A DNA stretch of 16,367 nucleotides from Candidatus Acetothermia bacterium (GTDB lineage: Bacteria > Bipolaricaulota > Bipolaricaulia > M55B111), in contig JBKGZT010000030.1 of NCBI GenBank assembly GCA_046543235.1, forward strand, positions 1-16,367. Reading direction: 5' to 3'. The notes beneath the pieces are model-generated. The model worked only from the letters and a program-made list of their open reading frames with translations, did no database searches and was not told the origin of the DNA. This document shows positions 2,573 to 16,237 of this stretch, in pieces; the stretch's first letter is position 1, and the number at the start of each line of letters is the position of its first letter. The position numbers and the translations under genes are program-made.

Positions 2573-4078
2573 GTGTTTACGATTATAGATTTATCGATGG
2601 ACGAAGAACAATTGAAAAGCACGGTAGAGCGGGCAAGGGAAAGAGACATCATTATTCCAACACTGGAACAGCAGAAAAACCCCGAGTTAGTCCCGGACGT
2701 GATCAAGGACGAGTTAAAGGATGTCGGGCTATGGGATATCGACTCCAGGAACCTCTTCAGGATTACCTGGAAGAACGAACCCCAAAAACAGGGAGGTCTC
2801 TACGATGGAGTTAATTACATGGAACTGCCGACCGAACTAACCGGGGTGAACGCTAGGATAATCGCCCTCGTCGGCAAATGGTTTCCTACCGGCTCCCATA
2901 AGGTCGGGGCCACCTTTGGCTGCCTGGTGCCACGGCTTACGACGGGTCAGTTCGACCCGACATACCAGAAGGCCGTCTGGCCGTCCACGGGCAATTACTG
3001 CCGAGGTGGAGCCTACGACGCGGAATTGCTTGCCTGCGACTCCGTCGCAATTCTTCCGGAGGAAATGAGCCAGGAGAGGTTCGACTGGCTCTCCAAGGTC
3101 GCCGGTGAGGTGATCGCGACCCCCGGCTGCGAGAGCAACGTAAAGGAGATATTCGACAAGTGCTGGGAGCTCAAGGAAAGTCGGGATGATATAGTCATTT
3201 TCAACCAGTTTGATGAATTCGGCAACCACCTCTGGCATTACGAGGTAACCGGGGCGGCGATGGAGGAGGTGCTGGAGGAAGAACTCACCCCCGGCTCGAA
3301 TTACTCCGGTGTCGTTCTTACTTCTGGTTCGTCCGGCACAATGGGTTGCGGAGATTACCTGAAGAAACATTTTCCCACTTCGAAACTGGCAGTTGGTGAG
3401 GCGCTTCAATGTCCAACGCTGCTTAGGAATGGTTACGGGGGCCACAGGATAGAAGGGATAGGCGATAAACACGTGCCCTGGATCCACAACGTCAGGAATA
3501 CCGACATGGTAATTGATATCGACGATTCCAACTCGATGAACCTGATCAGGCTGTTCAACGAGCCGGCCGGTCAGGAGTACCTGGAGGAGAAAAACGTGCC
3601 GGTCGAGACGATCGAAAAACTACCTTTGATGGGGATTTCTTCGGTGGCAAACATGGCCTCGGCGATAAAATACGCGAAGTACTACGAGCTGGACGAGGAC
3701 GACGTCGTCCTGACCGTTTTTACCGATTCCATGGAGCTTTACGATTCCAGACTGGAGGAAATGAGGGCAGAAGAGGGTGAATATTCGAGGGAAGACGCGA
3801 TCAGGGACTACCACCAGTATATCCAGGGCTTGACCACGGACAACATGAAGGAGTTGACTTACTACGAGAAGAAGAGAATTCACAACCTGAAATATTACAC
3901 CTGGATAGAACAGCAGGGCAAGGAAACGGAAGAACTGGATGCGCAGTGGTACGACTGGCCCAATTACTGGGACGAAGTACACGGCCAGGTTGGCGAAATA
4001 AATCGACGAATTGAGGAATTCAACGAGAAGACAGGTCTGCTTGAGGAGCTAAAGTCGAAAAAGGAGTCCGGAAATTAA
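2573..4078 (+). CDS. Fold-type II PLP-dependent enzyme, cysteine synthase/CBS-like with N- and C-terminal extensions; substrate unknown
   Basis: PLP-lysine motif FPTGSHKVG, plus PSTGNY, phosphate loop TSGSSGT, HRIEGIG and GISSVAN (CysK-like). About 500 aa. The start is uncertain: GTG 2573, ATT 2582 (best Shine-Dalgarno geometry) or ATG 2597. Confidence 0.85.
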   Translation: MFTIIDLSMDEEQLKSTVERARERDIIIPTLEQQKNPELVPDVIKDELKDVGLWDIDSRNLFRITWKNEPQKQGGLYDGVNYMELPTELTGVNARIIALVGKWFPTGSHKVGATFGCLVPRLTTGQFDPTYQKAVWPSTGNYCRGGAYDAELLACDSVAILPEEMSQERFDWLSKVAGEVIATPGCESNVKEIFDKCWELKESRDDIVIFNQFDEFGNHLWHYEVTGAAMEEVLEEELTPGSNYSGVVLTSGSSGTMGCGDYLKKHFPTSKLAVGEALQCPTLLRNGYGGHRIEGIGDKHVPWIHNVRNTDMVIDIDDSNSMNLIRLFNEPAGQEYLEEKNVPVETIEKLPLMGISSVANMASAIKYAKYYELDEDDVVLTVFTDSMELYDSRLEEMRAEEGEYSREDAIRDYHQYIQGLTTDNMKELTYYEKKRIHNLKYYTWIEQQGKETEELDAQWYDWPNYWDEVHGQVGEINRRIEEFNEKTGLLEELKSKKESGN

Positions 4079-4122: not shown

Positions 4123-4860
4123 ATGGCAAAAACCACGGATATGTTTGACGAAATAGAACCCTCCAAGAAGAAGAGCGTCAAAGTGGCGGAGCAGATAATC
4201 GAGCTGATAGAACGGGGAGAGCTCAGCCCCGGAGATAAACTGCCATCCGAACACGAGCTCGCGGAAAAGATGGACGTCAGCCGGCCGTCGGTAAGAGAAG
4301 CATTAAGCGGACTTCAGGCCCTGGAGATCGTCGATACGAAGATCGGATCGGGGACCTACGTCAGCGAGTCGATCCTGGAGAGCACCCTGGTCTCGGCGGA
4401 TCTGTCGCTGATGGAAAAGGGGACGAGCCATCTGCAGATAATCGAAGCGCGTAAGAACCTGGAAAACGCCATGCTGGGAATTGCTATAAACAACCTGGAG
4501 AACGAAGATCTTGGAAGAGTCGAGGAAGTGCTGGCCCGGATGAAGGAACATTCCACGGAAAAGGAATACCAGCAATACATGGACGCCGATCATGATTTTC
4601 ACGAGGCGCTTGTAAAGCTGACGGGCAATCCTCTTGTATTGGAAGCCGCTCAACCCCTGCTCGCCACGATAAACGACTCTCTTTACAGAGAGTTGACCCA
4701 CAAGTACTACCTCGTGGACGATTCCCGGATCAGGCGATGTTTTAATATTCATAAGGACCTTTACAGGTCAGTAAAAGAAAAAGATCTGAAAAAGGCAAAG
4801 GATTCCATAGCGAGACACTGGGAACTGATGGAGAACGCCCTGGAAAAGGAGAATAATTAA
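4123..4860 (+). CDS. GntR family (FadR subfamily) transcriptional regulator
   Basis: Winged HTH LSPGDKLPSEHELAEKMDVSRPSVREAL..L...G.GTYV and a helical FCD domain (EARKNLE, DHDFH, later His residues). SD GAGGT at 4111-4115. Confidence 0.93.
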   Translation: MAKTTDMFDEIEPSKKKSVKVAEQIIELIERGELSPGDKLPSEHELAEKMDVSRPSVREALSGLQALEIVDTKIGSGTYVSESILESTLVSADLSLMEKGTSHLQIIEARKNLENAMLGIAINNLENEDLGRVEEVLARMKEHSTEKEYQQYMDADHDFHEALVKLTGNPLVLEAAQPLLATINDSLYRELTHKYYLVDDSRIRRCFNIHKDLYRSVKEKDLKKAKDSIARHWELMENALEKENN

Positions 4861-4882: not shown

Positions 4883-5842
4883 ATGGAAAGCAGTGAGAAG
4901 ACCCTGACGGTAGTTGCGTTGGGGGGAAACGCGATTTTGAAGCCGGGACAGGAGGGGACGGCTAGGCAACAGATCGAGAACGTAAACGAGACGACTCAGC
5001 AGCTGGCAAAGATGGTATTGTCAGGAGAGTACAAGATAGTCGTCTCTCACGGTAACGGACCGCAGGTGGGAAACCTGATGCTCCAGAACGAGCTGGCCAA
5101 AGAGGAGGTTCCTTCTCACCCGCTCGACGTCTGTGGAGCGGAAAGCCAGGGCTTTATCGGTTACATGCTCTCGCAGAGTTTAGACAACGTATTTAACGAA
5201 AACGGCCGAGGTGACATTCCCGTCTCGACCGTCCTGACACAGACCTTGATTGACAAGGACGACCCCGCTTTCGAGGATCCGTCCAAGCCGGTCGGCCCGT
5301 TTTACACGCAGGAAGCCGCAGAGGAGCTGCAGGAGGAGAAGGGTTACGAGATGATAGAGGACGCCGGTCGAGGTTACAGGCGGGTGGTTCCATCACCCAA
5401 ACCGAAAGCGATAGTTGAGAAGGAACCGGTGAGGCAGTTGCTTGCAGCCCATACGGTGGTTATTGCCGCCGGTGGCGGTGGGGTACCGGTAGTCAGGGAA
5501 GGCGACAGGTTGGTCGGCCGCGAGGCGGTAATTGACAAGGACCTGGCCTCCGAACAGCTAGCCGAGGACGTGGGTGCGGAAGTTTTGCTCATCCTAACCG
5601 ACGTTGAGAACGTCTATTTGAATTACAACGAAGTCGACCAGGAAGCACTGGGTCGGGTTACCGTCGATGAAGTTGAAGATTACCTCGAAGAAGGTCACTT
5701 CGCTCGGGGCTCGATGAAACCGAAGGTGGAAGCCGGAATTGAATTCGTCAAACAGGGTGGAAAGAAGGCAGTCATAACCTCGCTGAACAAGGTGCTGGAA
5801 GCCCTTGACGGAAACACGGGCACGACAATCACATCAGAATAA
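4883..5842 (+). CDS. arcC: Carbamate kinase
   Basis: VVALGGNAI, SHGNGPQVG, PSKPVGPFY, EDAGRGYRRVVPSP, AGGGGVPV, AVIDKDLAS, LTDV and GSMKPKV. SD AAGGAGG upstream. Confidence 0.96.
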   Translation: MESSEKTLTVVALGGNAILKPGQEGTARQQIENVNETTQQLAKMVLSGEYKIVVSHGNGPQVGNLMLQNELAKEEVPSHPLDVCGAESQGFIGYMLSQSLDNVFNENGRGDIPVSTVLTQTLIDKDDPAFEDPSKPVGPFYTQEAAEELQEEKGYEMIEDAGRGYRRVVPSPKPKAIVEKEPVRQLLAAHTVVIAAGGGGVPVVREGDRLVGREAVIDKDLASEQLAEDVGAEVLLILTDVENVYLNYNEVDQEALGRVTVDEVEDYLEEGHFARGSMKPKVEAGIEFVKQGGKKAVITSLNKVLEALDGNTGTTITSE

Positions 5843-5855
5843 AAAAGGAGGAAAA

Positions 5856-6893
5856 ATGTCAAACACACAACTACAGGGTAGGGATTTTATAAGCTGGTTG
5901 GATTTTGAAAGAGACGAGATCGACGCGATTCTGGAGGCAGCACACGACCTGAAACGCCGGCAGATCAGAGGAGAGAGACAGACAAACGTACTACCCGCCA
6001 AGACGCTGTTCATGCTCTTTTACAATACTTCGCTAAGAACGAGAAATTCCTTCGAAGCTGGAATGACTCAGCTCGGAGGTCATGCACACTTTCTCCAACC
6101 AGGGGCGGTCTATACCCCGGCTCTTAAAGGAGAAGAAGAAGCCTACTCCACGGAGCGGGTAAGCGACGTGGCGCGGGTACTCTCCGAAATGGGCGATGCA
6201 ATTTCGATCCGGATCTACGGTGACAAGACGGATTGGCAGTACGGCAAGGGTTACAAGATCCTGCAGCAGTTCGCCGAGTGGGGGTCCGTTCCGGTAATCA
6301 ACATGGAGGACGACGGTTATCATCCGAATCAGGCACTCGCGGACGTAATGACGATGCAGGAGAAGATGGGGAAAGACCTTACCGGAAAGAAGTTTACCAT
6401 GAGCTGGGCATATTCCGGCTCGGTGGAAAAGCCTCTGTCAGTCCCACAATCCGCGATCATCAGCGCTGCGACGATGGGCATGGACGTGACTCTGGCGCAT
6501 CCGGAAGGACTTGACCTCGCCCCTGACGTACTGGACGCGACCGAGAAGAGGGCGAAAAAACACGGAGGCGACTTCGAAATAGTCCACGACATGGAAGAAG
6601 GATTTGCCGACGCGGACGTCGTCTATCCGAAGTCCTGGACGCTTCAACCCACCGACGGTACGACTGCCGACCTGGATAAGGCCAGGGAAGTATTCGAAGA
6701 CAACAAGGACTGGATTACCACGCAGGAAAAGATGGAGCTGACTAACGACGCCTATTACATGCACTGCCTGCCCGCCGACCGAGGCATGGAGGTCACTGAC
6801 GAGGTCATTGACGGTCCGAATTCAATAGTCTTTCAGGAAGCCGGAAACAGGCTGCACGCGCAGAAGGGCCTGTTGAGCCTGCTGTTGTCTTAG
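5856..6893 (+). CDS. YgeW-like (knotted-type) carbamoyltransferase, paralog A
   Basis: ATG 5856 follows SD AAGGAGG; the ORF-track start at 5805 overlaps arcC. Motifs FYNTSLRTRNSF, HPNQALAD, MSWAYSGSVEKPLSVPQS (YgeW-like), YPKSW, MHCLPADRG and EAGNRLH. It lacks the OTC DxxxSMG loop. Confidence 0.88.
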   Translation: MSNTQLQGRDFISWLDFERDEIDAILEAAHDLKRRQIRGERQTNVLPAKTLFMLFYNTSLRTRNSFEAGMTQLGGHAHFLQPGAVYTPALKGEEEAYSTERVSDVARVLSEMGDAISIRIYGDKTDWQYGKGYKILQQFAEWGSVPVINMEDDGYHPNQALADVMTMQEKMGKDLTGKKFTMSWAYSGSVEKPLSVPQSAIISAATMGMDVTLAHPEGLDLAPDVLDATEKRAKKHGGDFEIVHDMEEGFADADVVYPKSWTLQPTDGTTADLDKAREVFEDNKDWITTQEKMELTNDAYYMHCLPADRGMEVTDEVIDGPNSIVFQEAGNRLHAQKGLLSLLLS

Positions 6894-6903
6894 GGGGTAA
6901 CAA

Positions 6904-7929
6904 ATGAGCTGGCACGACTTAGAAAACAAAGACATGATCAGCGTCAAGGATTGGTCGAAAGAGGAACTAGATATTCTTCTTAGGGTAGCAAATGACCTGA
7001 AGAGCAGGTACTACAGCGGGGAGGAGCCCGACATACTGGAGAACGACACCTTCATGATGCTCTTCTTCAACTCCTCCACGAGGACGAGACAGTCCTTCGA
7101 AGCGGGAATGAGTCAACTTGGTGGCCACTCGCAGTTCCTCGCCCCGGAGACCATGCGGATATCCCTGGACAGGGAGCCGGGTGGAGGGGAATCGATAAAA
7201 GACACCACCAAGGTCATGGGACGCTACGCCGAAGGTATAGGCGTAAGACTCCTCGAGGACAAAGTGGACTATTACGGGCAGGGGACCGAGATCATGTACG
7301 AGATGGGCAGGCATTCGACCGTTCCCGTCATAAACATGGCCTCCGACATTTATCATCCCTGTCAATCCATGACTGACGTCATGACGATGCAGGAAAAGGT
7401 CGGTAACCTGCGAGACAAAAAGATCGCGGTCACCTGGGCCTACTCGCCTTGGGTCCGATCCTGGGGCTCGATTCAGTCCAACATCCTTACCTCCGCCCTC
7501 TTCGGCATGGACGTCAACCTCGCTCACCCGGAAGGTTACGAACTCGACCCGGACGTGCTGGACCTGACGGAGGAGAACGCGAAGAAGTCGGGAGGTTCCT
7601 TCACGGTAACCAACGATATGGACGAAGCACTACAGGGCGCCGATATAGTATATCCCAGGAACTGGATGAGTCCGGACAGGTACGAGATCGGCAAGGAAAA
7701 GGAAATCGAGATGGCAGGTGAGCACCAGGACTGGAAGTACACCAAGGAGAGACAGGAAGAACTGGGAGACCCCGGATACTTGCTCCACTGTATGCCCGTT
7801 GATCGGGGCAACGAAGTGGACGACGAGATCATGGACGATCCCGAGCTATCTTTTGTCTACGATCAGGCGGAAAACAGGCTACACTTCCAGAAGGCACTGA
7901 TGGCCCTGACGATGGGTGGAAACCTCTAG
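6904..7929 (+). CDS. YgeW/AOTCase-like carbamoyltransferase, paralog B
   Basis: FFNSSTRTRQSF, HPCQSMTD, VTWAYSPWVRSWGSIQS, YPRNW, LHCMPVDRG and QAENRLH. No SMG loop. SD GGGGGT overlaps the upstream stop. Confidence 0.88.
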   Translation: MSWHDLENKDMISVKDWSKEELDILLRVANDLKSRYYSGEEPDILENDTFMMLFFNSSTRTRQSFEAGMSQLGGHSQFLAPETMRISLDREPGGGESIKDTTKVMGRYAEGIGVRLLEDKVDYYGQGTEIMYEMGRHSTVPVINMASDIYHPCQSMTDVMTMQEKVGNLRDKKIAVTWAYSPWVRSWGSIQSNILTSALFGMDVNLAHPEGYELDPDVLDLTEENAKKSGGSFTVTNDMDEALQGADIVYPRNWMSPDRYEIGKEKEIEMAGEHQDWKYTKERQEELGDPGYLLHCMPVDRGNEVDDEIMDDPELSFVYDQAENRLHFQKALMALTMGGNL

Positions 7930-8039: not shown

Positions 8040-8086
8040 ACGTCTAAAGTTATCTAACCGGCTGTCCAACGAGCGAGGTGGGAATT

Positions 8087-9817
8087 TTGCCGGAAAAAGA
8101 CGCTGAAGCGGACTATTCGACTCGGCTCGGGGTTCTACCTATGATTCGAGGCGAGGAAGCGGCGGATACGTTAATAACGAACGGCTCTCTGGTAAACGTT
8201 CTGACCGGGGAGATCCTGGAGCGTGACGTGGCGATTAAGGGCGGGCGAGTCGGAGCAATTGATAAGGACCTGGACTCTTTGGCTGGAAGCTCTACCCGGG
8301 TTATCGATGCCGGCGGCCTATACTTGACACCTGGGTTCATCGACGCCCACCTCCATATCGAGAGTTCCATGCTTACTCCGGTCAGGTTTTCCGAGCTGAT
8401 GGCAGAAAAGGGCGTAACGACGGTTTTTTACGATCCGCATGAGATAGCGAACGTATCGGGCCTGGATGGCGTTAGGTGGACCTACGAGGAGATGGTAAGG
8501 AGTCCGGCAAAGGGTTTTCTAACCGTACCTTCCTGCGTGCCGGCCAGCTCACCTGAACTGGAAACTACCGGAGCCGAATTTGGACTGGAGGAGATCGATC
8601 GGGCCCTTGGCTGGGAAAAGACTGCTGCACTCGGAGAAATGATGAACTATCCTGGAGTCCTGTCGGGGCGGAGGGAGACGGTGGAAAAGCTCAAGTTGGC
8701 AGAAACACACGGGTTGCCGATCGAGGGGCACGCCAGTGGCCTTTCCGGCCGTGAACTGGACGGATACGGTTCGATGGGAATAGATTCCGACCACGAAGGG
8801 GTAAGCAAGGTAGAAGGAATCGAGAGGGCCCGGAAGGGTTTCTGGACGATGATAAGGGAGGGTTCCGGCTGGGCTGACCTGACGGAAGTCATCCGGGCGC
8901 TCACCGAAACCGACCTTTCTCCTACCAGATTCTGCCTAGTTACGGACGACCGGGATCCGATAGATCTGGTCGAAGAAGGCGGAGTCGACCACGTGATTAG
9001 AAGGGGGATAGAGGAAGGGCTGGAGCCGGTGCAAGCAATCCGTCTGGCAACTCTGAATCCCGCGACCAGGTTTGGGATGGACTCCGAGCTTGGTTCCATA
9101 TCTCCCGGAAGAAGAGCGGATATCAACCTGATAAGTGACCTTCAGACGGTGGAGGTGGAGACTACTCTGATCGGAGGAGAATCGGTTGATGAAATCGAAT
9201 GGCCGGAATCTAGTGCCTCTTCACTAAAGGGCACCGTAAACATACCCGGCGAGATATCTCTTGATACGTTCCGCCTGGATGAACGGGAGAAGAAATTTGG
9301 TATTCACGTTCACCAAGAGGATATAATTACGGAAAAAATGAGCCTCTCGGATTACGAAGGAGACCCGGCAGGGCTGAACAAATGCGCGGTACTTGAACGG
9401 CATAGATATACCGGCAACGTCGGAAGAAGTCTGGTGCGGGGTTTTGGTATCGATAACGGGGCGATCGGTTCGACAGTTGCCCACGACAGCCATAACTTGA
9501 TCGTCCTGGGCAGTGATGAGGAAAATATGGCCGAAGTCGCGAGGCATCTCAGACAACTGGGAGGTGGCCAGGCCGTAGCAAGAAACGGCGAAGTCGTGGC
9601 TTCCGTAAAGCTCCCGATTGCCGGTCTGATGAGCAACGAACAACCGGAAGAAGTTGCTGATTCTCTTAGGTCGGTGCAGGAAGCCGTAGGGGAACTCGGT
9701 GCCGACCTAGCTCAGCCGATGATGATACTGACTTCGCTCGCCCTTGCAGTTATCCCGGAAGTGAGGCTAACGGATAAAGGTTTGGTTGACGTCGACGAGC
9801 AGAAAATAATCGGTTAA
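8087..9817 (+). CDS. ade: Adenine deaminase (AdeC family, amidohydrolase superfamily)
   Basis: PGFIDAHLHIESSM, DPHEIANV, LGEMMNYPGV, EGHA, SDHE, IREGS, VTDD, STVAHDSHN and LAVIPEVRLTDKGL. Start placed at TTG 8087, 6 nt after SD GAGGTG (8075-8080); the alternative GTG 8078 lies inside the SD. Confidence 0.93.
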   Translation: MPEKDAEADYSTRLGVLPMIRGEEAADTLITNGSLVNVLTGEILERDVAIKGGRVGAIDKDLDSLAGSSTRVIDAGGLYLTPGFIDAHLHIESSMLTPVRFSELMAEKGVTTVFYDPHEIANVSGLDGVRWTYEEMVRSPAKGFLTVPSCVPASSPELETTGAEFGLEEIDRALGWEKTAALGEMMNYPGVLSGRRETVEKLKLAETHGLPIEGHASGLSGRELDGYGSMGIDSDHEGVSKVEGIERARKGFWTMIREGSGWADLTEVIRALTETDLSPTRFCLVTDDRDPIDLVEEGGVDHVIRRGIEEGLEPVQAIRLATLNPATRFGMDSELGSISPGRRADINLISDLQTVEVETTLIGGESVDEIEWPESSASSLKGTVNIPGEISLDTFRLDEREKKFGIHVHQEDIITEKMSLSDYEGDPAGLNKCAVLERHRYTGNVGRSLVRGFGIDNGAIGSTVAHDSHNLIVLGSDEENMAEVARHLRQLGGGQAVARNGEVVASVKLPIAGLMSNEQPEEVADSLRSVQEAVGELGADLAQPMMILTSLALAVIPEVRLTDKGLVDVDEQKIIG

Positions 9818-9908: not shown

Positions 9909-10727
9909 TTAGAATTCATAGTTCTCCCCGAGCAGGTCGACGCGGTAGGTGTAAAATGAGTTTTCTTCGTCCAGCCTCAGATATGCGATGAAGGTCCCGC
10001 CGTCCGCCAGGATCACTTTCTTCACCCCTGTTTCCGGGTCGGTTAAAACGAAGCGGTCTACGACTTTTGAAGAGCCGTCGATTTCCATCTCCTCCGTTTC
10101 TCTGTCCCGAAGCTGATAGTAAGCTTTAAGCCTCTCGTCGTCACCGCCTCTGGGGCCCGTACCACCGGTTCGAATCTCCACTATTTCTTTGGGCTCCCTT
10201 TTCGAGAGGATTAGGGCGGTAAAGGCCAGAGAGCCACCAGTTCCCTGAAAGTAAGAGTCGACTGGTTCCACCTTCCCTTCCTTTCTCTCTTCGCCCAGGT
10301 CGGCGTTGATACGTCCGTCCTCGACCGTAGACTTCAACCGGTCGCTTCCAATACCGAGAGGTCCGTCGTAGTTCAGCTCAAGCGACAGCGGGGAGAAGTC
10401 AGCTCCAACTCTTATTTCCTGGTCAAATTTGATCTTTGGCTTTACGAAAGGGATCGGAATTGGTGGCGTGACTACTCCTTCGGAAACGAGAACTATCTCA
10501 CCGGAGTCGTCCTTGATTAGTTCGTATTTTTCCGACCCCAGATCTTTCCCGTTGCTGACGTAAACAAGTTCTCCGCGGGAAAAGACGCCCCTTTCCGTTG
10601 AATTCAAACTATCCAGAGCTTCAGCCGCGGTACCTGTCTGGCCGCCGGGGAGACCAGAAATCAGGATAGTAAAAAGCAAAACCAGGAAGATAGATAGCGG
10701 GCTTCTGTTTAAAGTTATCTTGGACAT
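9909..10727 (-). CDS. Hypothetical secreted/exported protein
   Basis: Long ORF convergent with ade. Probable ATG at 10727 (the ORF track extends to 10751). N-terminal signal-peptide pattern MSKITLNRS-PLSIFLVLLFTILISG-...TAAEA. The mature part looks beta-strand-rich, with no motif I recognise. Confidence 0.7.
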   Translation of the reverse strand: MSKITLNRSPLSIFLVLLFTILISGLPGGQTGTAAEALDSLNSTERGVFSRGELVYVSNGKDLGSEKYELIKDDSGEIVLVSEGVVTPPIPIPFVKPKIKFDQEIRVGADFSPLSLELNYDGPLGIGSDRLKSTVEDGRINADLGEERKEGKVEPVDSYFQGTGGSLAFTALILSKREPKEIVEIRTGGTGPRGGDDERLKAYYQLRDRETEEMEIDGSSKVVDRFVLTDPETGVKKVILADGGTFIAYLRLDEENSFYTYRVDLLGENYEF

Positions 10728-10752
10728 AAAGATCCGACCCCGTTTTAGCACT

Positions 10753-10921: not shown

Positions 10922-11536
10922 TCAGTTTGCAAAGATAATTTCGCCCCTCTCCGGATCCATCGATTCTATGTCCACCAGGGAGAATATCGGTTTGTTTTCC
11001 TTACTCAGGCGCTGATAACCCCCGGACCCTTGCTTGCGGATGACAAAGCCGTATCCCACCACCGTGACGGAGAGGGCGTCCATTATATCCGAAAGGGTGC
11101 CCGCGGTTCTGCCGGTAAAGAGGAAGTCGTCGACGATCAATACCCGATCATCCGGGTCGAAGTAATCCCCGGAGACGGCCAGGGTGGTTTTGTTCTTTTT
11201 CGTTGGTGACTGGATCGTTCGGATCTCTTCTCCGCTCATCGTCGTCGGCACGCCTTTTTTCGCGTAAACGACCTCCACGTCCGGCTCTTGATCTATCAGG
11301 TTTGCCGCAGTTGTATAAGCGATAATGTTACCGGCTGCTTCAGCCGTCAGGACTTTGGTGACGCCGAGGTCTTGGAATTTCCTGGATATCGCTTTGCCGA
11401 CTTCGTTTAATAGCGAAGGTGCAACCTTGTGGTTTAAAAAGCTATCTACTTTGAGAAACTCCTCTCCTAAAACCTCTCCTTCGGCTTTGATCTTTTCGAT
11501 AAGTCTCTCTTTTGCGTTCTCTATTACGTTATCCAT
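10922..11536 (-). CDS. xpt: Xanthine phosphoribosyltransferase
   Basis: Xpt signature LKVDSFLNH, KVLTAEAAG, YAKK, SPTK and PRPP motif VLIVDDFLFTG. Overlaps the upstream gene's stop by 8 nt. Confidence 0.9.
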   Translation of the reverse strand: MDNVIENAKERLIEKIKAEGEVLGEEFLKVDSFLNHKVAPSLLNEVGKAISRKFQDLGVTKVLTAEAAGNIIAYTTAANLIDQEPDVEVVYAKKGVPTTMSGEEIRTIQSPTKKNKTTLAVSGDYFDPDDRVLIVDDFLFTGRTAGTLSDIMDALSVTVVGYGFVIRKQGSGGYQRLSKENKPIFSLVDIESMDPERGEIIFAN

Positions 11537-12926
11537 TCTCTCCCCCCAGAGTGTTGGGTTTTTCGCGGTTAATCCACTTCCCTTGAGCTTTTCGACCCCT
11601 GAATTCCTCTTCCTCGAGTATCGGTCTGCCGCGAAGGAAGACGAATCGCGGCCAGCCGTAAGCAGTTTTTCCCGTAAATGGGTTAAAGTCGGTATTCATG
11701 TGTAGTTTTTCGGGCTTTACCGACTTTGACTTGTCCGGGTCGAAGACCAAAATGTCGGCGTCCGTCCCCGGCCTAAGGCTTCCTTTTCGCGGGTAAAGAC
11801 CGAATCTTCTGGCCGGTTTTTCCGAGATCAATTCCACAAACCGTTCGATCGAAAGACGGTCCTTTCTAACCCCTTCCGTGTAGACGAGTGATCCGAGCGT
11901 TTCGACCCCCGGCAATCCTTGGGGGATATTGAGGAAGTCGTTCCGGAATTCGTCCTTTTGCTCGTTCCAGAACGGACAGTGATCTGTCGCCAAGGAGTCC
12001 AGGGTTCCTGTTTCGAGGGCGCGCCAGAGGGCTTCCTGGTCTTCTTTCAGCCTGAGAGGTGGTGTTGCGGCGTAACGGTGTCCGTTTTTCTCTTCGTAGC
12101 TCGACTCGTCCAGGATCAGGTACTGAGGGCACGTTTCCCCCGATACGTCGAGCCCCAGGTCCTTCCCCTGTTTGAGCAGTTCCACGCTCTTCCGTGTAGA
12201 GAGGTGGGCCAGGTGCAGACGGCCATCCATGGCTTCCGTCAGGTGTACCACCTTGCCCACTGCTTCGGATTCGGAATAGTCCGGTCTGCTTGCCGGGTGG
12301 TATTCTATCGACTTTTTATCCCGGGATGCCAGTTCGTCTCGGTTCTTCCGAATGATTTCGTCGTTTTCGCAGTGAACCATAGCCAATCCGCCGACTTCCC
12401 CTACCTCTTTCAGGGCCCGCGATAGTTCCCCGTCAGGCGTCCGCCTGTCCGACTCCCCATAGGCGGTAAAGAACTTGAAGGACGTTACTCCCTGTTCAAT
12501 TGCTTCCTCCAGGTCGCCGGGTTCTACGTCGTCATACCCGTAGAGCGTTCCGTGGAAGGAATAATCCACGGGGCACTTGCTTGCCTGCTCTTTTCTCTCC
12601 TTTATCCCCGAAACCAGGCCCTGATCAGGTCCCGGAGTGGTGAAATCGATGATCGTGGTCACGCCGCCGTGCGCTGCCGCCCTTCCCCCGGTAAAGAAAT
12701 CGTCGGAGGAGACGGTCCCGGCTACCGGAAGCTGCATGTGGGTATGGGAATCGATGAGTCCGGGAACGACGTATGCCCCGCCCGCATCGTATATTTGATC
12801 CGGGGTTTCCCCGTCCACCGAACTGCCGACGATCGCGATCTTTTCACCGGATACTCCGATATCTCCCTTAAAGACGTTTCCGTTTTGTACTATCAACCCG
12901 TTTTTTATGAGATAATCGAGTTTCAT
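11529..12926 (-). CDS. hydA: Dihydropyrimidinase / D-hydantoinase (cyclic amidohydrolase, HyuA-like)
   Basis: PGLIDSHTH, GGVTTIIDF, GVTSFKFF (carbamylated Lys), VHCEN, HLAHLS, ETCPQYL, PPLR, ATDHCPF and GLPGVE. ATG 12926 follows GGGAG; the alternative start is GTG 12941. Confidence 0.9.
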   Translation of the reverse strand: MKLDYLIKNGLIVQNGNVFKGDIGVSGEKIAIVGSSVDGETPDQIYDAGGAYVVPGLIDSHTHMQLPVAGTVSSDDFFTGGRAAAHGGVTTIIDFTTPGPDQGLVSGIKERKEQASKCPVDYSFHGTLYGYDDVEPGDLEEAIEQGVTSFKFFTAYGESDRRTPDGELSRALKEVGEVGGLAMVHCENDEIIRKNRDELASRDKKSIEYHPASRPDYSESEAVGKVVHLTEAMDGRLHLAHLSTRKSVELLKQGKDLGLDVSGETCPQYLILDESSYEEKNGHRYAATPPLRLKEDQEALWRALETGTLDSLATDHCPFWNEQKDEFRNDFLNIPQGLPGVETLGSLVYTEGVRKDRLSIERFVELISEKPARRFGLYPRKGSLRPGTDADILVFDPDKSKSVKPEKLHMNTDFNPFTGKTAYGWPRFVFLRGRPILEEEEFRGRKAQGKWINREKPNTLGGENG

Positions 12927-12938
12927 CTGTTCAACTCC

Positions 12939-12953
12939 CACGGTTATACAGAA
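12939..12953 (-). promoter_or_regulatory. Candidate operator (third copy of the CTGT-N3-ACMG motif)
   Basis: On the - strand TTCTGTATAACCGTG lies directly upstream of the hydA SD. CTGTATAACCGT matches CTGTATTACCGT (2473-2484) at 11 of 12 positions. Confidence 0.45.
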
Positions 12954-12986: not shown

Positions 12987-13820
12987 TCAGTTTCTTAGAA
13001 GTTCTTCCAGTCCCCGCAGCGCAACCTTTCTACGGTACTCGGCCGACCCCCTTATGTCGCTGATGGGTGAGATTTCCGCTTCGAGCAGGTTTTTTGCCTC
13101 CGAAACCACGTCCTCGGTCAGCTTCTTTCCCTTCAGGTATTTCTCCACCGGGGTCGGGCGAACGATCGTCGGGGCGACCGCACCGTAAGCGATTCTGATG
13201 CCCTCGGTGAGATCTCCGTCGGTTTTCAGGACGAAGCCCATCGAACACACCGAGATGTCCAGGGCGTTACGCCGGCCGACCTTGTTGAAGAAGTGACGAT
13301 AATTGCCGGAAAGCCTGGGAATTTTTATGGATTCCAGGAATTCACCCCTTCGTAAGACCGTTTCACCCGGACCCGTAATGAAGTCCTCTATCGGAGTTCT
13401 CCGAGTTCCGTCCCTGCTTTTGAGCTTTAGCTGGGCATCGAGAGCGTAGAGGGCGATCAAGGTGTCCGCGGAGGGTGAAGCGTTGCAGATATTACCGCCG
13501 ACGGTCGCCTTGTTCCGAAGCTGGACTCCACCTACAGATTCGGCGGACTCCGCGAGTATCGGAAATTCTTCCTGAATGAGATTTGATCTTGCGAGCTCTC
13601 CGTGGGTTGTGGTTGCTGAGACCCTGATCTCCTCGTCCCTTTTCTCGATCTTTGGAACGTCGATCACGTTTGTCACGTCTAACAGGCGTTTCGGACTGAT
13701 CAGGTCCTTCTCGATTTTTACGAAGAGGTCGGTCCCGCCCGCTACGAGACGATAGTCGTTCTCGTTCATTCGATCGAATAGCTCTTCCTCGTCCTCCGGA
13801 ACCAGGAATTCAAACTCCAA
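12987..13820 (-). CDS. xdhB: Xanthine dehydrogenase-family FAD-binding medium subunit
   Basis: VAGGTDL, QLRNKATVGGNICNASPSAD, KVGRR and PISDIRGSAEYR. TTG start after a GGAGG SD. No HcrB-type Cys insertion. Confidence 0.92.
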   Translation of the reverse strand: MEFEFLVPEDEEELFDRMNENDYRLVAGGTDLFVKIEKDLISPKRLLDVTNVIDVPKIEKRDEEIRVSATTTHGELARSNLIQEEFPILAESAESVGGVQLRNKATVGGNICNASPSADTLIALYALDAQLKLKSRDGTRRTPIEDFITGPGETVLRRGEFLESIKIPRLSGNYRHFFNKVGRRNALDISVCSMGFVLKTDGDLTEGIRIAYGAVAPTIVRPTPVEKYLKGKKLTEDVVSEAKNLLEAEISPISDIRGSAEYRRKVALRGLEELLRN

Positions 13821-14442
13821 TTTCCTCCCCCTCCTCTTTCAGGTAAGTCTCGATTTCTTCGACGTCGGATTTTTCGTCCACGTCAAGCACGACACCTTTC
13901 CAGTCAGTCTCCACCAGTTTTAGTTCGTCCCGGTTCTCGCTAATTAGCCTCCTTGCTCCTCTATCTCCGGAAATTTCCGTGGAGAGTGCCCGCTTCCATC
14001 TCCGATCCAGCAGTACCGGGAAACCTCGCTGTTCTTTATAAGCAGGTGCCACGATCGACGAGCCGGGCTCCCTTGCCTCGATCACCCGGGTTATTAAGGA
14101 AGGTGTTATCAGGGGCATATCGGCTAGAAACAACAGTAACCCGGTTGTACCGTCTTCCACGGAGCTTACCCCCAGCTTGACCGAAGAACTCAAGCCTTCT
14201 CCCCAACTATCGTTTTCCAGCACTCTGAAATGCGAAGTGTCGATCGAAGCCTTTATCTCTTCTGCCCGGTATCCGAGCACCAGCAGGGGGTCATAAGTCC
14301 AGTTTAATTCCTCAATAGCCTCCATCGGCCAGCGGATGAGCGGTTTTCCTCCCAGCTCGACGAGTTGCTTTAACCCTCCGAACCTGGTAGCGCCACCGCC
14401 CGCGAGCAGGATGGGAGTTAATTCGTACGGTCTAGAGCTCAA
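13810..14442 (-). CDS. mocA: Molybdenum cofactor cytidylyltransferase (MocA/YgfJ-like nucleotidyltransferase)
   Basis: ILLAGGGATRFGGLKQL, N..WGEGLSSS, LADMP, GFPV, GDRGAR and DVD. Lies between XDH subunit genes with 11-nt overlaps on both sides. Confidence 0.87.
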   Translation of the reverse strand: MSSRPYELTPILLAGGGATRFGGLKQLVELGGKPLIRWPMEAIEELNWTYDPLLVLGYRAEEIKASIDTSHFRVLENDSWGEGLSSSVKLGVSSVEDGTTGLLLFLADMPLITPSLITRVIEAREPGSSIVAPAYKEQRGFPVLLDRRWKRALSTEISGDRGARRLISENRDELKLVETDWKGVVLDVDEKSDVEEIETYLKEEGEEIGV

Positions 14443-14917
14443 TCCTTTTCCCTTTTTCCCTTAATTTTTCCCCCGCAATCTCGATGGCGTCCACGATCTT
14501 TGTGTATCCGGTACAGCGACAGATATTTCCTTCAATTCCCTTCCGGATCTCCTCTCGGGATGGGTTTGGGTTTTTATCCAGTATCTCAAGGCCGACCATG
14601 ATAAAACCGGGGGTGCAAAAACCGCACTGGACTCCTCCGGATTCCACGAAAGCTTCCTGCAAAGGATGAAGCTGGCCTTCTTCTTCCAGGCCTTCGATGG
14701 TCTTAATTCGGGATCCGTCGACCTGAGGTACGTATGTCAGACAGGATAGTTGGGACTCGCCGTCGATTAGGACGGTACAGGAACCACATTCACCTACGCC
14801 GCAGCCCTCCTTCACTCCCGTGAAACCCAGCTCGTCCCGGAGGAAATCTAACAACCGCATGTCCGACCTTACGTCACGTTCGTACCGCTTGCCGTTGACG
14901 GTTACCTCTATATCCAT
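14432..14917 (-). CDS. xdhC: Xanthine dehydrogenase-family [2Fe-2S] small subunit
   Basis: GCGVGECGSCTV...SC and QCGFCTPG...NICRCTGY. ATG 14917 follows GGGGT; the ORF track starts at 14944. Confidence 0.94.
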   Translation of the reverse strand: MDIEVTVNGKRYERDVRSDMRLLDFLRDELGFTGVKEGCGVGECGSCTVLIDGESQLSCLTYVPQVDGSRIKTIEGLEEEGQLHPLQEAFVESGGVQCGFCTPGFIMVGLEILDKNPNPSREEIRKGIEGNICRCTGYTKIVDAIEIAGEKLREKGKRIEL

Positions 14918-14992
14918 TTTTACCCCGCTTTTTATATTTATCACCCCGAAGCCCGAACAACGGGGCCTCGAGCTTTCTACCAGGGATAAAAC

Positions 14993-16237
14993 TTATAGGT
15001 CCTCTTCCAGCGCGCTGTCCACGGCTGACAGTTCAGGTGGGATTGCGATTGGATCTTCTACGCCCTTCTTTGCCGCTTCTACGTCCTTCAGGCCGCTACC
15101 GGTGATAAATATCCCGATCCTATCCTCCTTGTCTAGCATTCCTTCGGAGAGCGCTTTTTTGAAGCCGGCGTAGGCTGCAGCCGCGGCAGGTTCCGCGAAG
15201 ATACCTCTCTTTCGGGCGAGCTCGGTCAAGCCGGCAGTTATTTCACTGTCGCTTACCGTCATGTAGTGTCCACCGTTATCGTGGACGTACTTAATTGCTT
15301 TCACGATGTCTCGGGGTTTCCCCACCGAGATGCTGTCGGCAATGGTGGCTGCATCCTTCTCAGCCAATTCGACATCCCCGCCATCGTAACTGGCGAAAGT
15401 CGAAGCTATGGTATCTGCTCCCTCTGCTTGAACGCCGATTACCTCCGGCACACGATCTATCAAATCGATACGGGCCAGTTCCTTGAAGCCCTTTGTCAGC
15501 CCGCTAATTATCGATCCGTCCCCTACGGAGACGAATACCTTGTCCGGAGGTTCCCAATTTAGTTGATCGGCCATTTCCAGCGCCCCGGTCTTCTTCCCCT
15601 CAACCAGATAGGGATGAATAGCAGCCGAACGGTTGTACCAGCCGTATTTTTCCGCAGCTTTAAGGGCAAGATCATAGGCCCGATCGTAGCTGGCGTCTAC
15701 GGCGAATACGTTGGCTCCATATACCAGAAGCTGGGTTATCTTTGCCTCCGGGGCGGACTTCGGTACGAAGATTATCGTCTTCATGTTCGAAGCCGCAGCC
15801 AGTCCCGCTAACGAACTTGCCGCGTTGCCAGTGGAGGCACACGTCATGGTATCTATTCCTTTTTGCCGAGCTGCGGCAATTGCAAGGACCGTTGCCCGGT
15901 CCTTGTAAGACGCTGTGGGGTTGCCACTATCGTCCTTGATCCAGATCTCATTAACTTTGTCGGTAAGCCCGTGAAAGGAGTAGAGGGGGGTTCCGCCCAC
16001 CCTCATCGGAGGCAGGTCCTCCAGGTCCTGGATCGGAAGAAGGGAAGAGTATTTTTTGATATCCCGCTCGGACGAGCTTTTGACCTGTTGGTGAAAATCC
16101 TTTCCCACCTTTTCGTAGTCGTATACGACTTCCAGTGTTCCTTTCCTCGGGCCGCATTTCGGGCAGGTGTAATCCAGTTCGTCTGGCCCGTATAACTTTT
16201 CACAAGAAACACAACGTAATCCGTTTATGTTTTTCAT
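14993..16237 (-). CDS. Threonine-synthase-like PLP enzyme with N-terminal CxxC..CxxC zinc ribbon; probably not a true ThrC
   Basis: CVSC..CPKC, NPTASYKDR (PLP Lys), ASTGNAASS, EGKKT, SVGDG, TIADSISVG, FAEPAAAA and ITGSGLKD. Confidence 0.85.
   Translation of the reverse strand: MKNINGLRCVSCEKLYGPDELDYTCPKCGPRKGTLEVVYDYEKVGKDFHQQVKSSSERDIKKYSSLLPIQDLEDLPPMRVGGTPLYSFHGLTDKVNEIWIKDDSGNPTASYKDRATVLAIAAARQKGIDTMTCASTGNAASSLAGLAAASNMKTIIFVPKSAPEAKITQLLVYGANVFAVDASYDRAYDLALKAAEKYGWYNRSAAIHPYLVEGKKTGALEMADQLNWEPPDKVFVSVGDGSIISGLTKGFKELARIDLIDRVPEVIGVQAEGADTIASTFASYDGGDVELAEKDAATIADSISVGKPRDIVKAIKYVHDNGGHYMTVSDSEITAGLTELARKRGIFAEPAAAAAYAGFKKALSEGMLDKEDRIGIFITGSGLKDVEAAKKGVEDPIAIPPELSAVDSALEEDL

Follow-up and report, generated by a model that had tools for sequence, protein, structure and literature searches.

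The DNA stretch analysed here, referred to as the window, is the entire contig C20 (16,367 bases) of a 1.32-Mb metagenome-assembled genome of the phylum Bipolaricaulota (G000, 87% complete). Matches to its DNA were found in hypersaline-lake and microbial-mat metagenomes, all from one study. Genes were called by open reading frame (ORF) listing, by Pfam and NCBIfam/TIGRFAM profile scans of the 14 ORFs of the window and by comparison with E. coli proteins. This report concerns two tandem carbamoyltransferase genes, termed A and B, which directly follow a carbamate kinase gene and may act jointly in the anaerobic breakdown of urate.

The route of urate degradation without oxygen was elucidated only in 2025 and is described here, as is all literature cited below, from the accessible portions of the sources. 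In this reductive (2,8-dioxopurine) route, urate is converted to 2,8-dioxopurine by XdhD or XdhAC (PMC12507026; bioRxiv 10.1101/2025.05.19.654654; 10.1101/2025.04.24.650524), which is then dearomatised by YgfK or UacX, and the rings are opened by SsnA and HyuA to yield 2,3-diureidopropionate (PMC12507026; bioRxiv 10.1101/2025.04.24.650524). One of the two ureido groups is released phosphorolytically by the carbamoyltransferase YgeW and the carbamoyl phosphate formed is used by the carbamate kinase YqeA for ATP synthesis, whereas the remaining ureido group is hydrolysed by YgeY; the resulting diaminopropionate is converted to pyruvate by YgeX (PMC12507026; bioRxiv 10.1101/2025.04.24.650524; for these four enzymes also the commentary by Percudani, PMC12990295). 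The single ATP obtained via YgeW and carbamate kinase is the only gain of energy known for this part of the route. As to which ureido group is taken by YgeW, Li et al. differ from Liu et al.

The carbamoyltransferases A and B

The carbamate kinase of the ArcC/YqeA type (4883..5842), carbamoyltransferase A (345 residues; 5856..6893) and carbamoyltransferase B (341 residues; 6904..7929) are all encoded on the plus strand by open, complete and closely spaced reading frames. The kinase reaches 427.6 bits on TIGR00746 (cut-off 358.25) and shares 46% identity with E. coli YqeA, and both carbamoyltransferases contain the OTCace_N and OTCace domains above cut-off. The initial annotation, which had described two adjacent, intact transcarbamylases behind a carbamate kinase, is thereby confirmed. 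The mechanically assigned ORF of A starts with the TTG at 5805 and overlaps the kinase gene; the true start is likely the ATG at 5856 instead, which lies 4 nt behind a GGAGG ribosome-binding site (5847..5851, plus strand). B starts 10 nt past the stop codon of A and is preceded by a G-run. The two proteins share 45% identity (155/346, E = 3e-98).

The sequence motifs quoted in the initial annotation are all present in the translations, as NTSLRTR, HPNQ, HCLP, WAYSGSVEKPLSVPQ and YPKSW in A and as SSTRTR, HPCQ, HCMP, WAYSPWVRSWGSIQ and YPRNW in B. Every residue for binding carbamoyl phosphate is retained in both proteins, namely SxRT, the β4 arginine, HPxQ, HC(L/M)P and NRLH; residue roles and specificity residue lists were taken from a family review of 2015 (PMC4581275). 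These motifs are largely invariant across 17 A and 22 B sequences, HC(L/M)P being HCMP (Met for Leu) in B of the window and HVMP in B of genome G006. With their intact carbamoyl-phosphate sites both A and B look active. The absence of the DxxxSMG loop of ornithine carbamoyltransferases (OTCases), likewise part of the earlier description, is evident from the alignment to E. coli ArgI, where YTDVWVSMG corresponds to YPKSWTLQP in A and to YPRNWMSPD in B.

The environment expected for the second substrate distinguishes the two proteins. The position of YgeW Gln160 (Glu144 in N-acetylornithine carbamoyltransferase, AOTCase) is occupied by Glu in A and by Ala-Ser in B, and that of YgeW Lys270 (AOTCase Lys252) by Lys in A and by Arg in B; the KPLSVPQ loop of YgeW recurs unchanged in A and is replaced by PWVRSWGSIQ in B. 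Lys363 of YgeW is Arg in both. A resembles AOTCase in shape, with 80's and 120's loops that are long, and B carries an extended 120's loop and the loop SPWVRSWGSIQ with a single proline. For both structure models, which are of moderate confidence (predicted local distance difference test scores of 72.8 and 77.1) and in the case of A include a poor N-terminal domain, the best fold match is AOTCase, with template-modelling (TM) scores of 0.83 (A) and 0.78-0.80 (B). On the sequence level, the closest solved relative of A is the AOTCase of Xanthomonas, and those of B are an archaeal OTCase (190 bits) followed by AOTCase (188 bits).

With both domains and the carbamoyl-phosphate motifs, A and B are members of the aspartate/ornithine carbamoyltransferase superfamily. 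The YgeW models TIGR03316 and NF005538 (cut-offs 500 and 453) give 170.6 and 181.7 bits for A and 153.1 and 162.7 bits for B, and both proteins lack the YgeW insertions, Gln160 and the short QIAHGE 80's loop. The AOTCase model NF003384 (cut-off 288) is passed by A (301.4 bits) and failed by B (255.2 bits), and the AOTCase residues Trp77, Glu92, Asn185 and Lys302 correspond in A to Thr, Thr, a gap and Glu (alignment to 3M5C/3L05). Both proteins remain below the cut-off of 280.85 for the OTCase model TIGR00658 (A 234.5, B 237.7 bits). The motifs HDLP and (T/S)RWQTTG of diaminopropionate carbamoyltransferase (DPTCase) are replaced by HCLP and YPKSWTLQ in A and by HCMP and YPRNWMSP in B. The knotted carbamoyltransferases (AOTCase, SOTCase and YTCase), to which A and B may belong, are characterised by a proline-rich loop and an extended 120's loop (PMC4581275) and by a trefoil knot. 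In the alignment, an extended 120's loop is combined with KPLSVPQ in A and with a one-proline loop in B.

A total of 153 carbamoyltransferase ORFs from 90 loci were typed. They include 53 A-type ORFs (66-95% identity to A), 60 B-type ORFs (53-93% identity to B) and 24 ORFs of a third type, C, which are about 326 residues long and carry the QIAHGE 80's loop of YgeW, NxQ(C/D)D and KPLSVPQ. A quick maximum-likelihood tree was calculated from 78 rows, comprising 15 of 53 A-type rows, 17 of 60 B-type rows and all others of at least 280 residues; rows L068_3133 and L032_1 were removed before alignment. The A clade is supported and includes an A-like gene of Anaerolineae, the B clade is supported and nested in a larger supported group that also takes in B-like genes from archaea and elsewhere, and E. 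coli YgeW is placed on a long branch inside the supported C clade (SH-aLRT 99). The branching order among the A, B and C clades is not resolved by the tree. Constraining YgeW to the A clade was rejected (p-AU 0.0026), the group having been named after the tree was seen and YgeW forming a long branch. Judged by these sequence comparisons, A and B are not orthologues of YgeW and represent two old clades beside a compact YgeW-like clade C. The label "YgeW-like" originally given to the pair is a loose one (153-182 bits versus cut-offs of 453/500); it fits clade C, because E. coli YgeW groups with C and A and B fail the YgeW models. An origin of the pair by recent duplication inside the phylum was rejected, as A and B are separate old clades, a distant A-like/B-like pair being found in the Anaerolineae locus L078 and B-like genes in archaea.

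Distribution and exchange of the gene pair

The presence of the relevant genes was tabulated by hand across the phylum, in 184 species genomes that are related to one another and often incomplete; the counts are descriptive and do not amount to a statistical test. A B orthologue (E <= 1e-100) is present in 122 genomes, SsnA (E <= 1e-90) in 130, a true YgeY (over cut-off) in 12 and an ArgE/DapE-type M20 enzyme similar to that of locus L022 (E <= 1e-50) in 43. Cluster-borne examples of the latter, at L022:4318-5502, L033:8756-9913 and L030:1580-2737, exceed the cut-off of TIGR01910 and reach 104-145 bits on the YgeY model; the genome of the window lacks an enzyme of this type. SsnA was detected in 107 of the 122 genomes with B versus 23 of the 62 without. 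Among the 107 genomes with SsnA and B, 6 contain YgeY, 32 the ArgE/DapE-type M20 enzyme and 69 neither; of the 23 with SsnA and without B, five contain YgeY (G005, G013, G052, G090 and G092). In all 27 A-type matches among the matches listed, A is located on the same contig as B at a distance of about 1.3 kb or less.

Gene order was compared in 80 loci selected solely by likeness to B, 54 of which are of the A/B type. In these the gene 5' of B is A in 48 cases and another carbamoyltransferase type, C', in three, and in three the contig ends. The A-B tandem is not a product of chance, and the co-occurrence of B with A, a check suggested in the initial annotation, is apparent. A regular linkage of ygeY to the pair, which would refute the proposal made there, was not observed: a YgeY-type gene is found in none of the 54 A/B-type loci (genome-wide figures are given below). 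In L060:2361-3296 and L067:9555-10004 a small gene of the PD-(D/E)XK_3 nuclease family is inserted between A and B.

In other phyla 17 loci carry a C-type gene, 12 of them alone and 5 paired with another carbamoyltransferase. YgeY is located directly 5' of the carbamoyltransferase in 9 of the 12 loci with C alone and in none of the 5 with a pair, the partner of C being similar to aspartate carbamoyltransferase (ATCase) in L090, L096 and L098 and of another type in L094 and L097. An exception revealed by a targeted search is G090, which holds C, an ATCase-like gene and YgeY together. The pairing of C with an ATCase-like gene looks like a second, independent route to two carbamoyltransferases. 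The ATCase-like protein (about 317 residues) adjoins C in L090:8785, L096:100, L098:9019 and L114:8596, with a kinase adjacent in the latter three; its copy in L114 passes TIGR00670 (254 versus 237 bits), and YgeY is present in L114 and absent from L090, L096 and L098.

Exchanges of single genes and of the entire pair have occurred naturally. In some Bipolaricaulota C' takes the place of A (L031:8995-9978, L061:12, L068:3133 and L128:3291-4274), B being kept in L031, L061, L068 and G180; C' passes the OTCase model (302 versus 280.85 bits) and yet lacks DxxxSMG (YAKSWGSF). In G006 (99% complete, one contig) the gene order is pyridoxal phosphate (PLP) enzyme, GntR regulator, carbamate kinase, A and B. 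In G005 and G013, which belong to the same genus and are 96% complete, the equivalent place is occupied by PLP enzyme, GntR regulator, carbamate kinase, YgeY and C. Just 3' of C, G005 retains a dead chimera in which residues 83-113 of A are joined to residues ~213-341 of B with one frameshift (L108:7877-8363, minus strand; G005:C1, about 1242376-1242862); it shares 86% identity over 84 amino acids and 82% over 398 nt with B of G006. No A/B remnant was found in the sister genome G013. The simplest reading of an A-B/YgeY-C exchange at the same spot is that YgeY plus C and A plus B do the same two-step job, and that the arrival of a foreign YgeY-C module rendered the A/B pair dispensable in one lineage. 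In G163-G165 YgeY-C resides on a different contig. A decayed cluster is found at L127:9556-11730 (G107:C33), with kinase and A intact, B deleted and the last 38 residues of the molybdenum subunit remaining; G107 (92% complete) yielded no match to SsnA.

Genomic context and proposed pathway

The window contains no M20 gene, as had been stated in the initial annotation; none was detected among the 14 scanned ORFs or by tblastn with E. coli YgeY. In the 87%-complete genome, searches for YgeY (best match 64.3 bits, a LysW-lysine hydrolase), for a YgeX orthologue (best match 52.5 bits) and for YgfK were likewise negative. Other proteins of M20-family type in the genome are a PepD-like dipeptidase, an M20D amidohydrolase and an M42 aminopeptidase. 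The cluster holds no candidate for a UacY-type D-aminoacylase, and the Amidohydro_3 matches of the genome are Ade, HyuA, a PyrC-like protein, SsnA, a TRZ/ATZ-type hydrolase and one weak HutI-like protein. ArgG is present, and the LysW-type lysine hydrolase suggests amino-acid synthesis on a carrier protein.

Upstream of the kinase, on the plus strand, the window encodes a xanthine-dehydrogenase-type molybdenum subunit whose start lies at the contig end (2..2341; 32% identity to E. coli XdhA, 25% to XdhD), a CysK-like fold type II PLP enzyme of 501 residues (2573..4078) and, immediately 5' of the kinase, a regulator of the GntR/FCD family (4123..4860; Pfam GntR and FCD), which keeps this position in most loci compared. 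The CysK-like enzyme has a PALP domain, unmatched ends and weak cysteine-synthase matches, all below the cut-offs; it accompanies the cluster inside and outside the phylum and is a candidate for the last step from diaminopropionate or ureido-alanine to pyruvate. B is followed on the plus strand by adenine deaminase (8078..9817; TIGR01178, 513.5 bits, cut-off 472.5). On the minus strand lie an ORF of 280 residues without Pfam or NCBIfam match (9909..10751), found with 56-65% identity at the equivalent place in the two related loci L022 and L027, xanthine phosphoribosyltransferase (10922..11536; TIGR01744, 165.1 bits, cut-off 164.45) and a HyuA-like hydantoinase (11529..12941; TIGR02033, 448.1 bits, cut-off 393.25; 37% identity to E. 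coli HyuA). They are followed on the same strand by the flavin adenine dinucleotide (FAD) subunit of a molybdenum hydroxylase (12987..13820), a MocA-like molybdenum cofactor cytidylyltransferase scoring below the equivalog cut-off (13810..14442) and the [2Fe-2S] subunit of a molybdenum hydroxylase (14432..14944), both subunits being assigned by domain and family scans. The series ends with a threonine-synthase-like PLP enzyme (14993..16237), which is the best, albeit weak, match of the genome to diaminopropionate ammonia-lyase (52.5 bits, cut-off 532) and whose family accompanies the C/YgeY clusters of other phyla.

The step from diaminopropionate to pyruvate probably resides, in a new form, in these two PLP enzymes. 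Both fold-type-II families (2573-4078 and 14993-16237) accompany urate clusters of several phyla that lack a YgeX orthologue. That the PLP enzymes themselves remove urea and make a second de-ureidation needless is unlikely, because the clusters L083, L085, L086 and L099, which carry one or both PLP families of the window, retain YgeY.

Further pathway components are located on other contigs. A UacX-like reductase of the PyrD family is found next to SsnA on C55 (G000:C55:4822-7354), the latter with 494.9 bits on NF005540 (cut-off 444) and an ORF of 519 residues as listed, to which the models match from residue 80. C66 (G000:C66:4628-7527) encodes an FAD subunit and an XdhD-like Fe-S/Mo fusion, clipped by the contig end and 37% identical to E. 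coli XdhD. XdhD-like and UacX-like enzymes, SsnA, HyuA, carbamoyltransferases and kinase are encoded in one genome of 87% completeness. The earlier assignment of the pair to a purine/ureide pathway is supported, with HyuA, kinase and molybdenum hydroxylase subunits encoded in the window and the SsnA/UacX-like and XdhD-like proteins on other contigs.

Based on this gene content, the window appears to represent the lower half of the reductive uric-acid pathway in a form belonging to the Bipolaricaulota, and we regard it as moderately probable that A and B together do the job of YgeW and YgeY by two phosphorolytic steps with a yield of two ATP. In this scenario purines would be oxidised to urate, which would be reduced and ring-opened by the XdhD-like enzyme, the UacX-like reductase and SsnA. 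The HyuA-like enzyme would open ureidomethyl-hydantoin to 2,3-diureidopropionate, from which A and B would each remove one ureido group by phosphorolysis. The adjacent carbamate kinase would use both carbamoyl phosphates to convert ADP to ATP, giving two ATP per purine, and diaminopropionate would finally be converted to pyruvate via one of the two linked PLP enzymes. What is observed are the genes and their conservation, carbamoyl-phosphate sites that are intact in both enzymes, and a pattern of replacement from genome to genome. The idea that the second paralogue replaces YgeY and that the ATP yield is doubled, already put forward in the initial annotation, agrees with the absence of YgeY from the 54 loci and with the swap in G005/G013; it is deduced from gene content.

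Less firm is the distribution of roles within the pair, for which we only lean towards A as the counterpart of YgeW and B as the phosphorolytic counterpart of the hydrolytic YgeY. A is assigned to the YgeW step because Lys270 and the KPLxVPQ loop are common to A, YgeW and C and because A is replaceable by C'; B is taken as the stand-in for YgeY because it differs at every second-substrate position. The chances appear about even that B founds a new specificity as a phosphorylase for the mono-ureido intermediate (albizziin, which is the product of DPTCase, or 3-amino-2-ureidopropionate), taking over the step of YgeY.

Several points weigh against the proposed double phosphorolysis. We infer the substrates, the reaction direction and the ATP yield from sequence and gene context, and the residues do not tell which ureido group A or B takes. 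YgeW phosphorolysis is described by Li et al. as thermodynamically poor or uphill (PMC12507026). YgeY is encoded anywhere in 6 of the 122 B-bearing genomes and is linked to the pair in 3; in G126, G140 and G141 a YgeY-C module lies between intact A and B, so that pair and hydrolase coexist. An ArgE/DapE-type M20 enzyme (TIGR01910, not YgeY), which could serve as ureidohydrolase, is present in 36 of the 122 (~30%), and its gene is found within 11 of the 54 A/B-type loci, between A and B in L030, L033 and G069. The lack of a hydrolase is therefore no rule of the phylum. The window's own genome, at 87% completeness, encodes an unlinked M20D amidohydrolase (TIGR01891; C16:783-1970). In six archaeal loci that carry B-like genes the queries used revealed neither a kinase nor a purine gene, and the wider B-like clade may thus have other roles. 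The counts overstate independence, as the genomes compared are kin, and independent events are few, comprising the exchange in the genus of G006 (g6 swap), the insertion of YgeY-C on two or three occasions and, outside the phylum, three to five lineages that possess two carbamoyltransferases. Furthermore, the tree is a quick one in which YgeW forms a long branch.

Some of these points would suit a different arrangement, in which A and B form one heteromeric carbamoyltransferase for a single de-ureidation and the other ureido group is left to a hydrolase encoded elsewhere (an M20 deacylase or amidohydrolase). The genes are always adjacent and closely spaced, active sites in this family are formed at subunit interfaces with the 80's loop contributed by the neighbour (PMC4581275), and potential hydrolases exist in the ArgE/DapE-type M20 enzymes of 36 of 122 B-bearing genomes and in the M20D amidohydrolase of the window's genome. 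However, A is exchangeable for C' while B stays (L031, L061, L068, G180), and the two genes can be separated by a YgeY-C module, an M20 gene or the small PD-(D/E)XK gene. Moreover, 69 of the 107 genomes with SsnA and B possess neither YgeY nor the cluster-type M20 enzyme, the pair was replaced in G005/G013 by a two-enzyme module of hydrolase and carbamoyltransferase rather than by a single enzyme, and the accessible part of the family review contains no heterotrimeric carbamoyltransferase (PMC4581275). We therefore judge a heteromer to be quite unlikely.

An unlikely reading is also that only one of the two proteins participates in urate breakdown, the other acting on citrulline, carbamoylputrescine, oxalurate or ureidoglycine and feeding the same kinase. 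Several substrates are known to be processed by catabolic carbamoyltransferases that operate with one kinase (PMC4581275), B-like genes stand alone in the six archaeal loci, and the best solved sequence match of B is an archaeal OTCase (190 bits). These arguments are opposed by the occurrence of B only beside A or C' in the purine cluster (51 of 54 loci, those with a visible upstream gene), by the joint decay of A and B upon arrival of YgeY-C in G005, by the lack of OTCase, putrescine carbamoyltransferase (PTCase), ATCase and DPTCase motifs in B and by the skewed distribution of SsnA (107/122 genomes with B versus 23/62 without). We consider it very improbable that A functions biosynthetically as an N-acetylornithine carbamoyltransferase, with the pair devoted to arginine synthesis, even though A passes NF003384 (301.4 versus 288 bits), Xanthomonas AOTCase ranks first among its solved relatives and fold matches, and the window's genome has ArgG and no canonical OTCase among its contigs. 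A lacks AOTCase residues Trp77, Glu92, Asn185 and Lys302 and follows carbamate kinase in a purine rather than an arginine cluster. A separate OTCase (382-384 bits, cut-off 280.85) is present in the four relatives checked (G058, G006, G005 and G013), and its absence from the window's genome, 87% complete, is probably an assembly gap. An arginine-biosynthetic role, whether as OTCase or AOTCase, was rejected on the basis of motifs, context and the separate OTCase of relatives.

Relation to known systems and implications

The arrangement found here resembles the YgeW-YqeA-YgeY systems of E. coli and C. sporogenes in combining carbamoyltransferase and kinase with HyuA, SsnA and a molybdenum hydroxylase (PMC12507026; bioRxiv 10.1101/2025.04.24.650524). 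In those organisms ATP formation is coupled to the phosphorolytic removal of a ureido group from 2,3-diureidopropionate, and the same is proposed here. In contrast to E. coli, however, the Bipolaricaulota cluster has a pair of carbamoyltransferases that are both non-orthologous to YgeW, orthologues of YgeY and YgeX were not found in the genome, a UacX-like protein stands in place of YgfK, and two ATP are proposed instead of one. The opposite solution is realised in C. difficile, where the hydrolase UacY replaces YgeW and YqeA, demonstrating that hydrolytic and phosphorolytic enzymes can replace one another in the two de-ureidation reactions (PMC12507026). C. difficile hydrolyses both groups and gains no ATP at these steps, whereas the present cluster would phosphorolyse both.

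Clade C, which adjoins YgeY in Bacillota, Chloroflexota, Acidobacteriota and some Bipolaricaulota, occurs in the same type of cluster and with the same kinase as A and B, to which it is 42-48% (A) and 39-45% (B) identical. It keeps the Gln98-type 80's loop (QIAHGE), in contrast to A with Glu and long loops and to B with Ala-Ser, Arg and a changed loop. With the Xanthomonas AOTCase (PDB 3KZC family) A shares the equivalents of Glu144 and Lys252 and the long 80's and 120's loops, but not the specificity residues Trp77, Glu92, Asn185 and Lys302, and its context here is catabolic. The DPTCases of viomycin and zwittermicin biosynthesis interconvert diaminopropionate and ureido-alanine with carbamoyl phosphate, a reaction whose reverse is proposed here for the second step (PMC4581275). 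They are unknotted and OTCase-like with HDLP and (T/S)RWQTTG, unlike A and B, which have HCLP and HCMP and no such loop (PMC4581275). We found no published description of a variant with two carbamoyltransferases in the literature searched, where a further match, a study of 2013, concerns a different route. Term searches in the two pathway papers gave no mention of paralogues or of a second carbamoyltransferase; clusters with two PF00185 genes may be shown in the supplementary cluster maps of Liu et al. or in the neighbourhood network of Li et al.

If the proposed scheme is correct, both ureido groups would be harvested and substrate-level ATP formation at these steps would be doubled. The known and proposed variants would then form a graded series of ATP yield from de-ureidation, with none in C. 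difficile, one in E. coli and two in the Bipolaricaulota. For the carbamoyltransferases, a well-studied enzyme family, one or two new substrate specificities would be added, and hundreds of annotations as "ornithine" or "acetylornithine carbamoyltransferase" would have to be corrected. The components might also be of use in building uricolytic probiotics whose gain in fitness is stronger. Both ureido groups would likewise be conserved as ATP by other anaerobes in which an analogous second carbamoyltransferase is present, and the additional ATP would explain why the cluster is retained in about two thirds of the species of an energy-poor phylum with small genomes.

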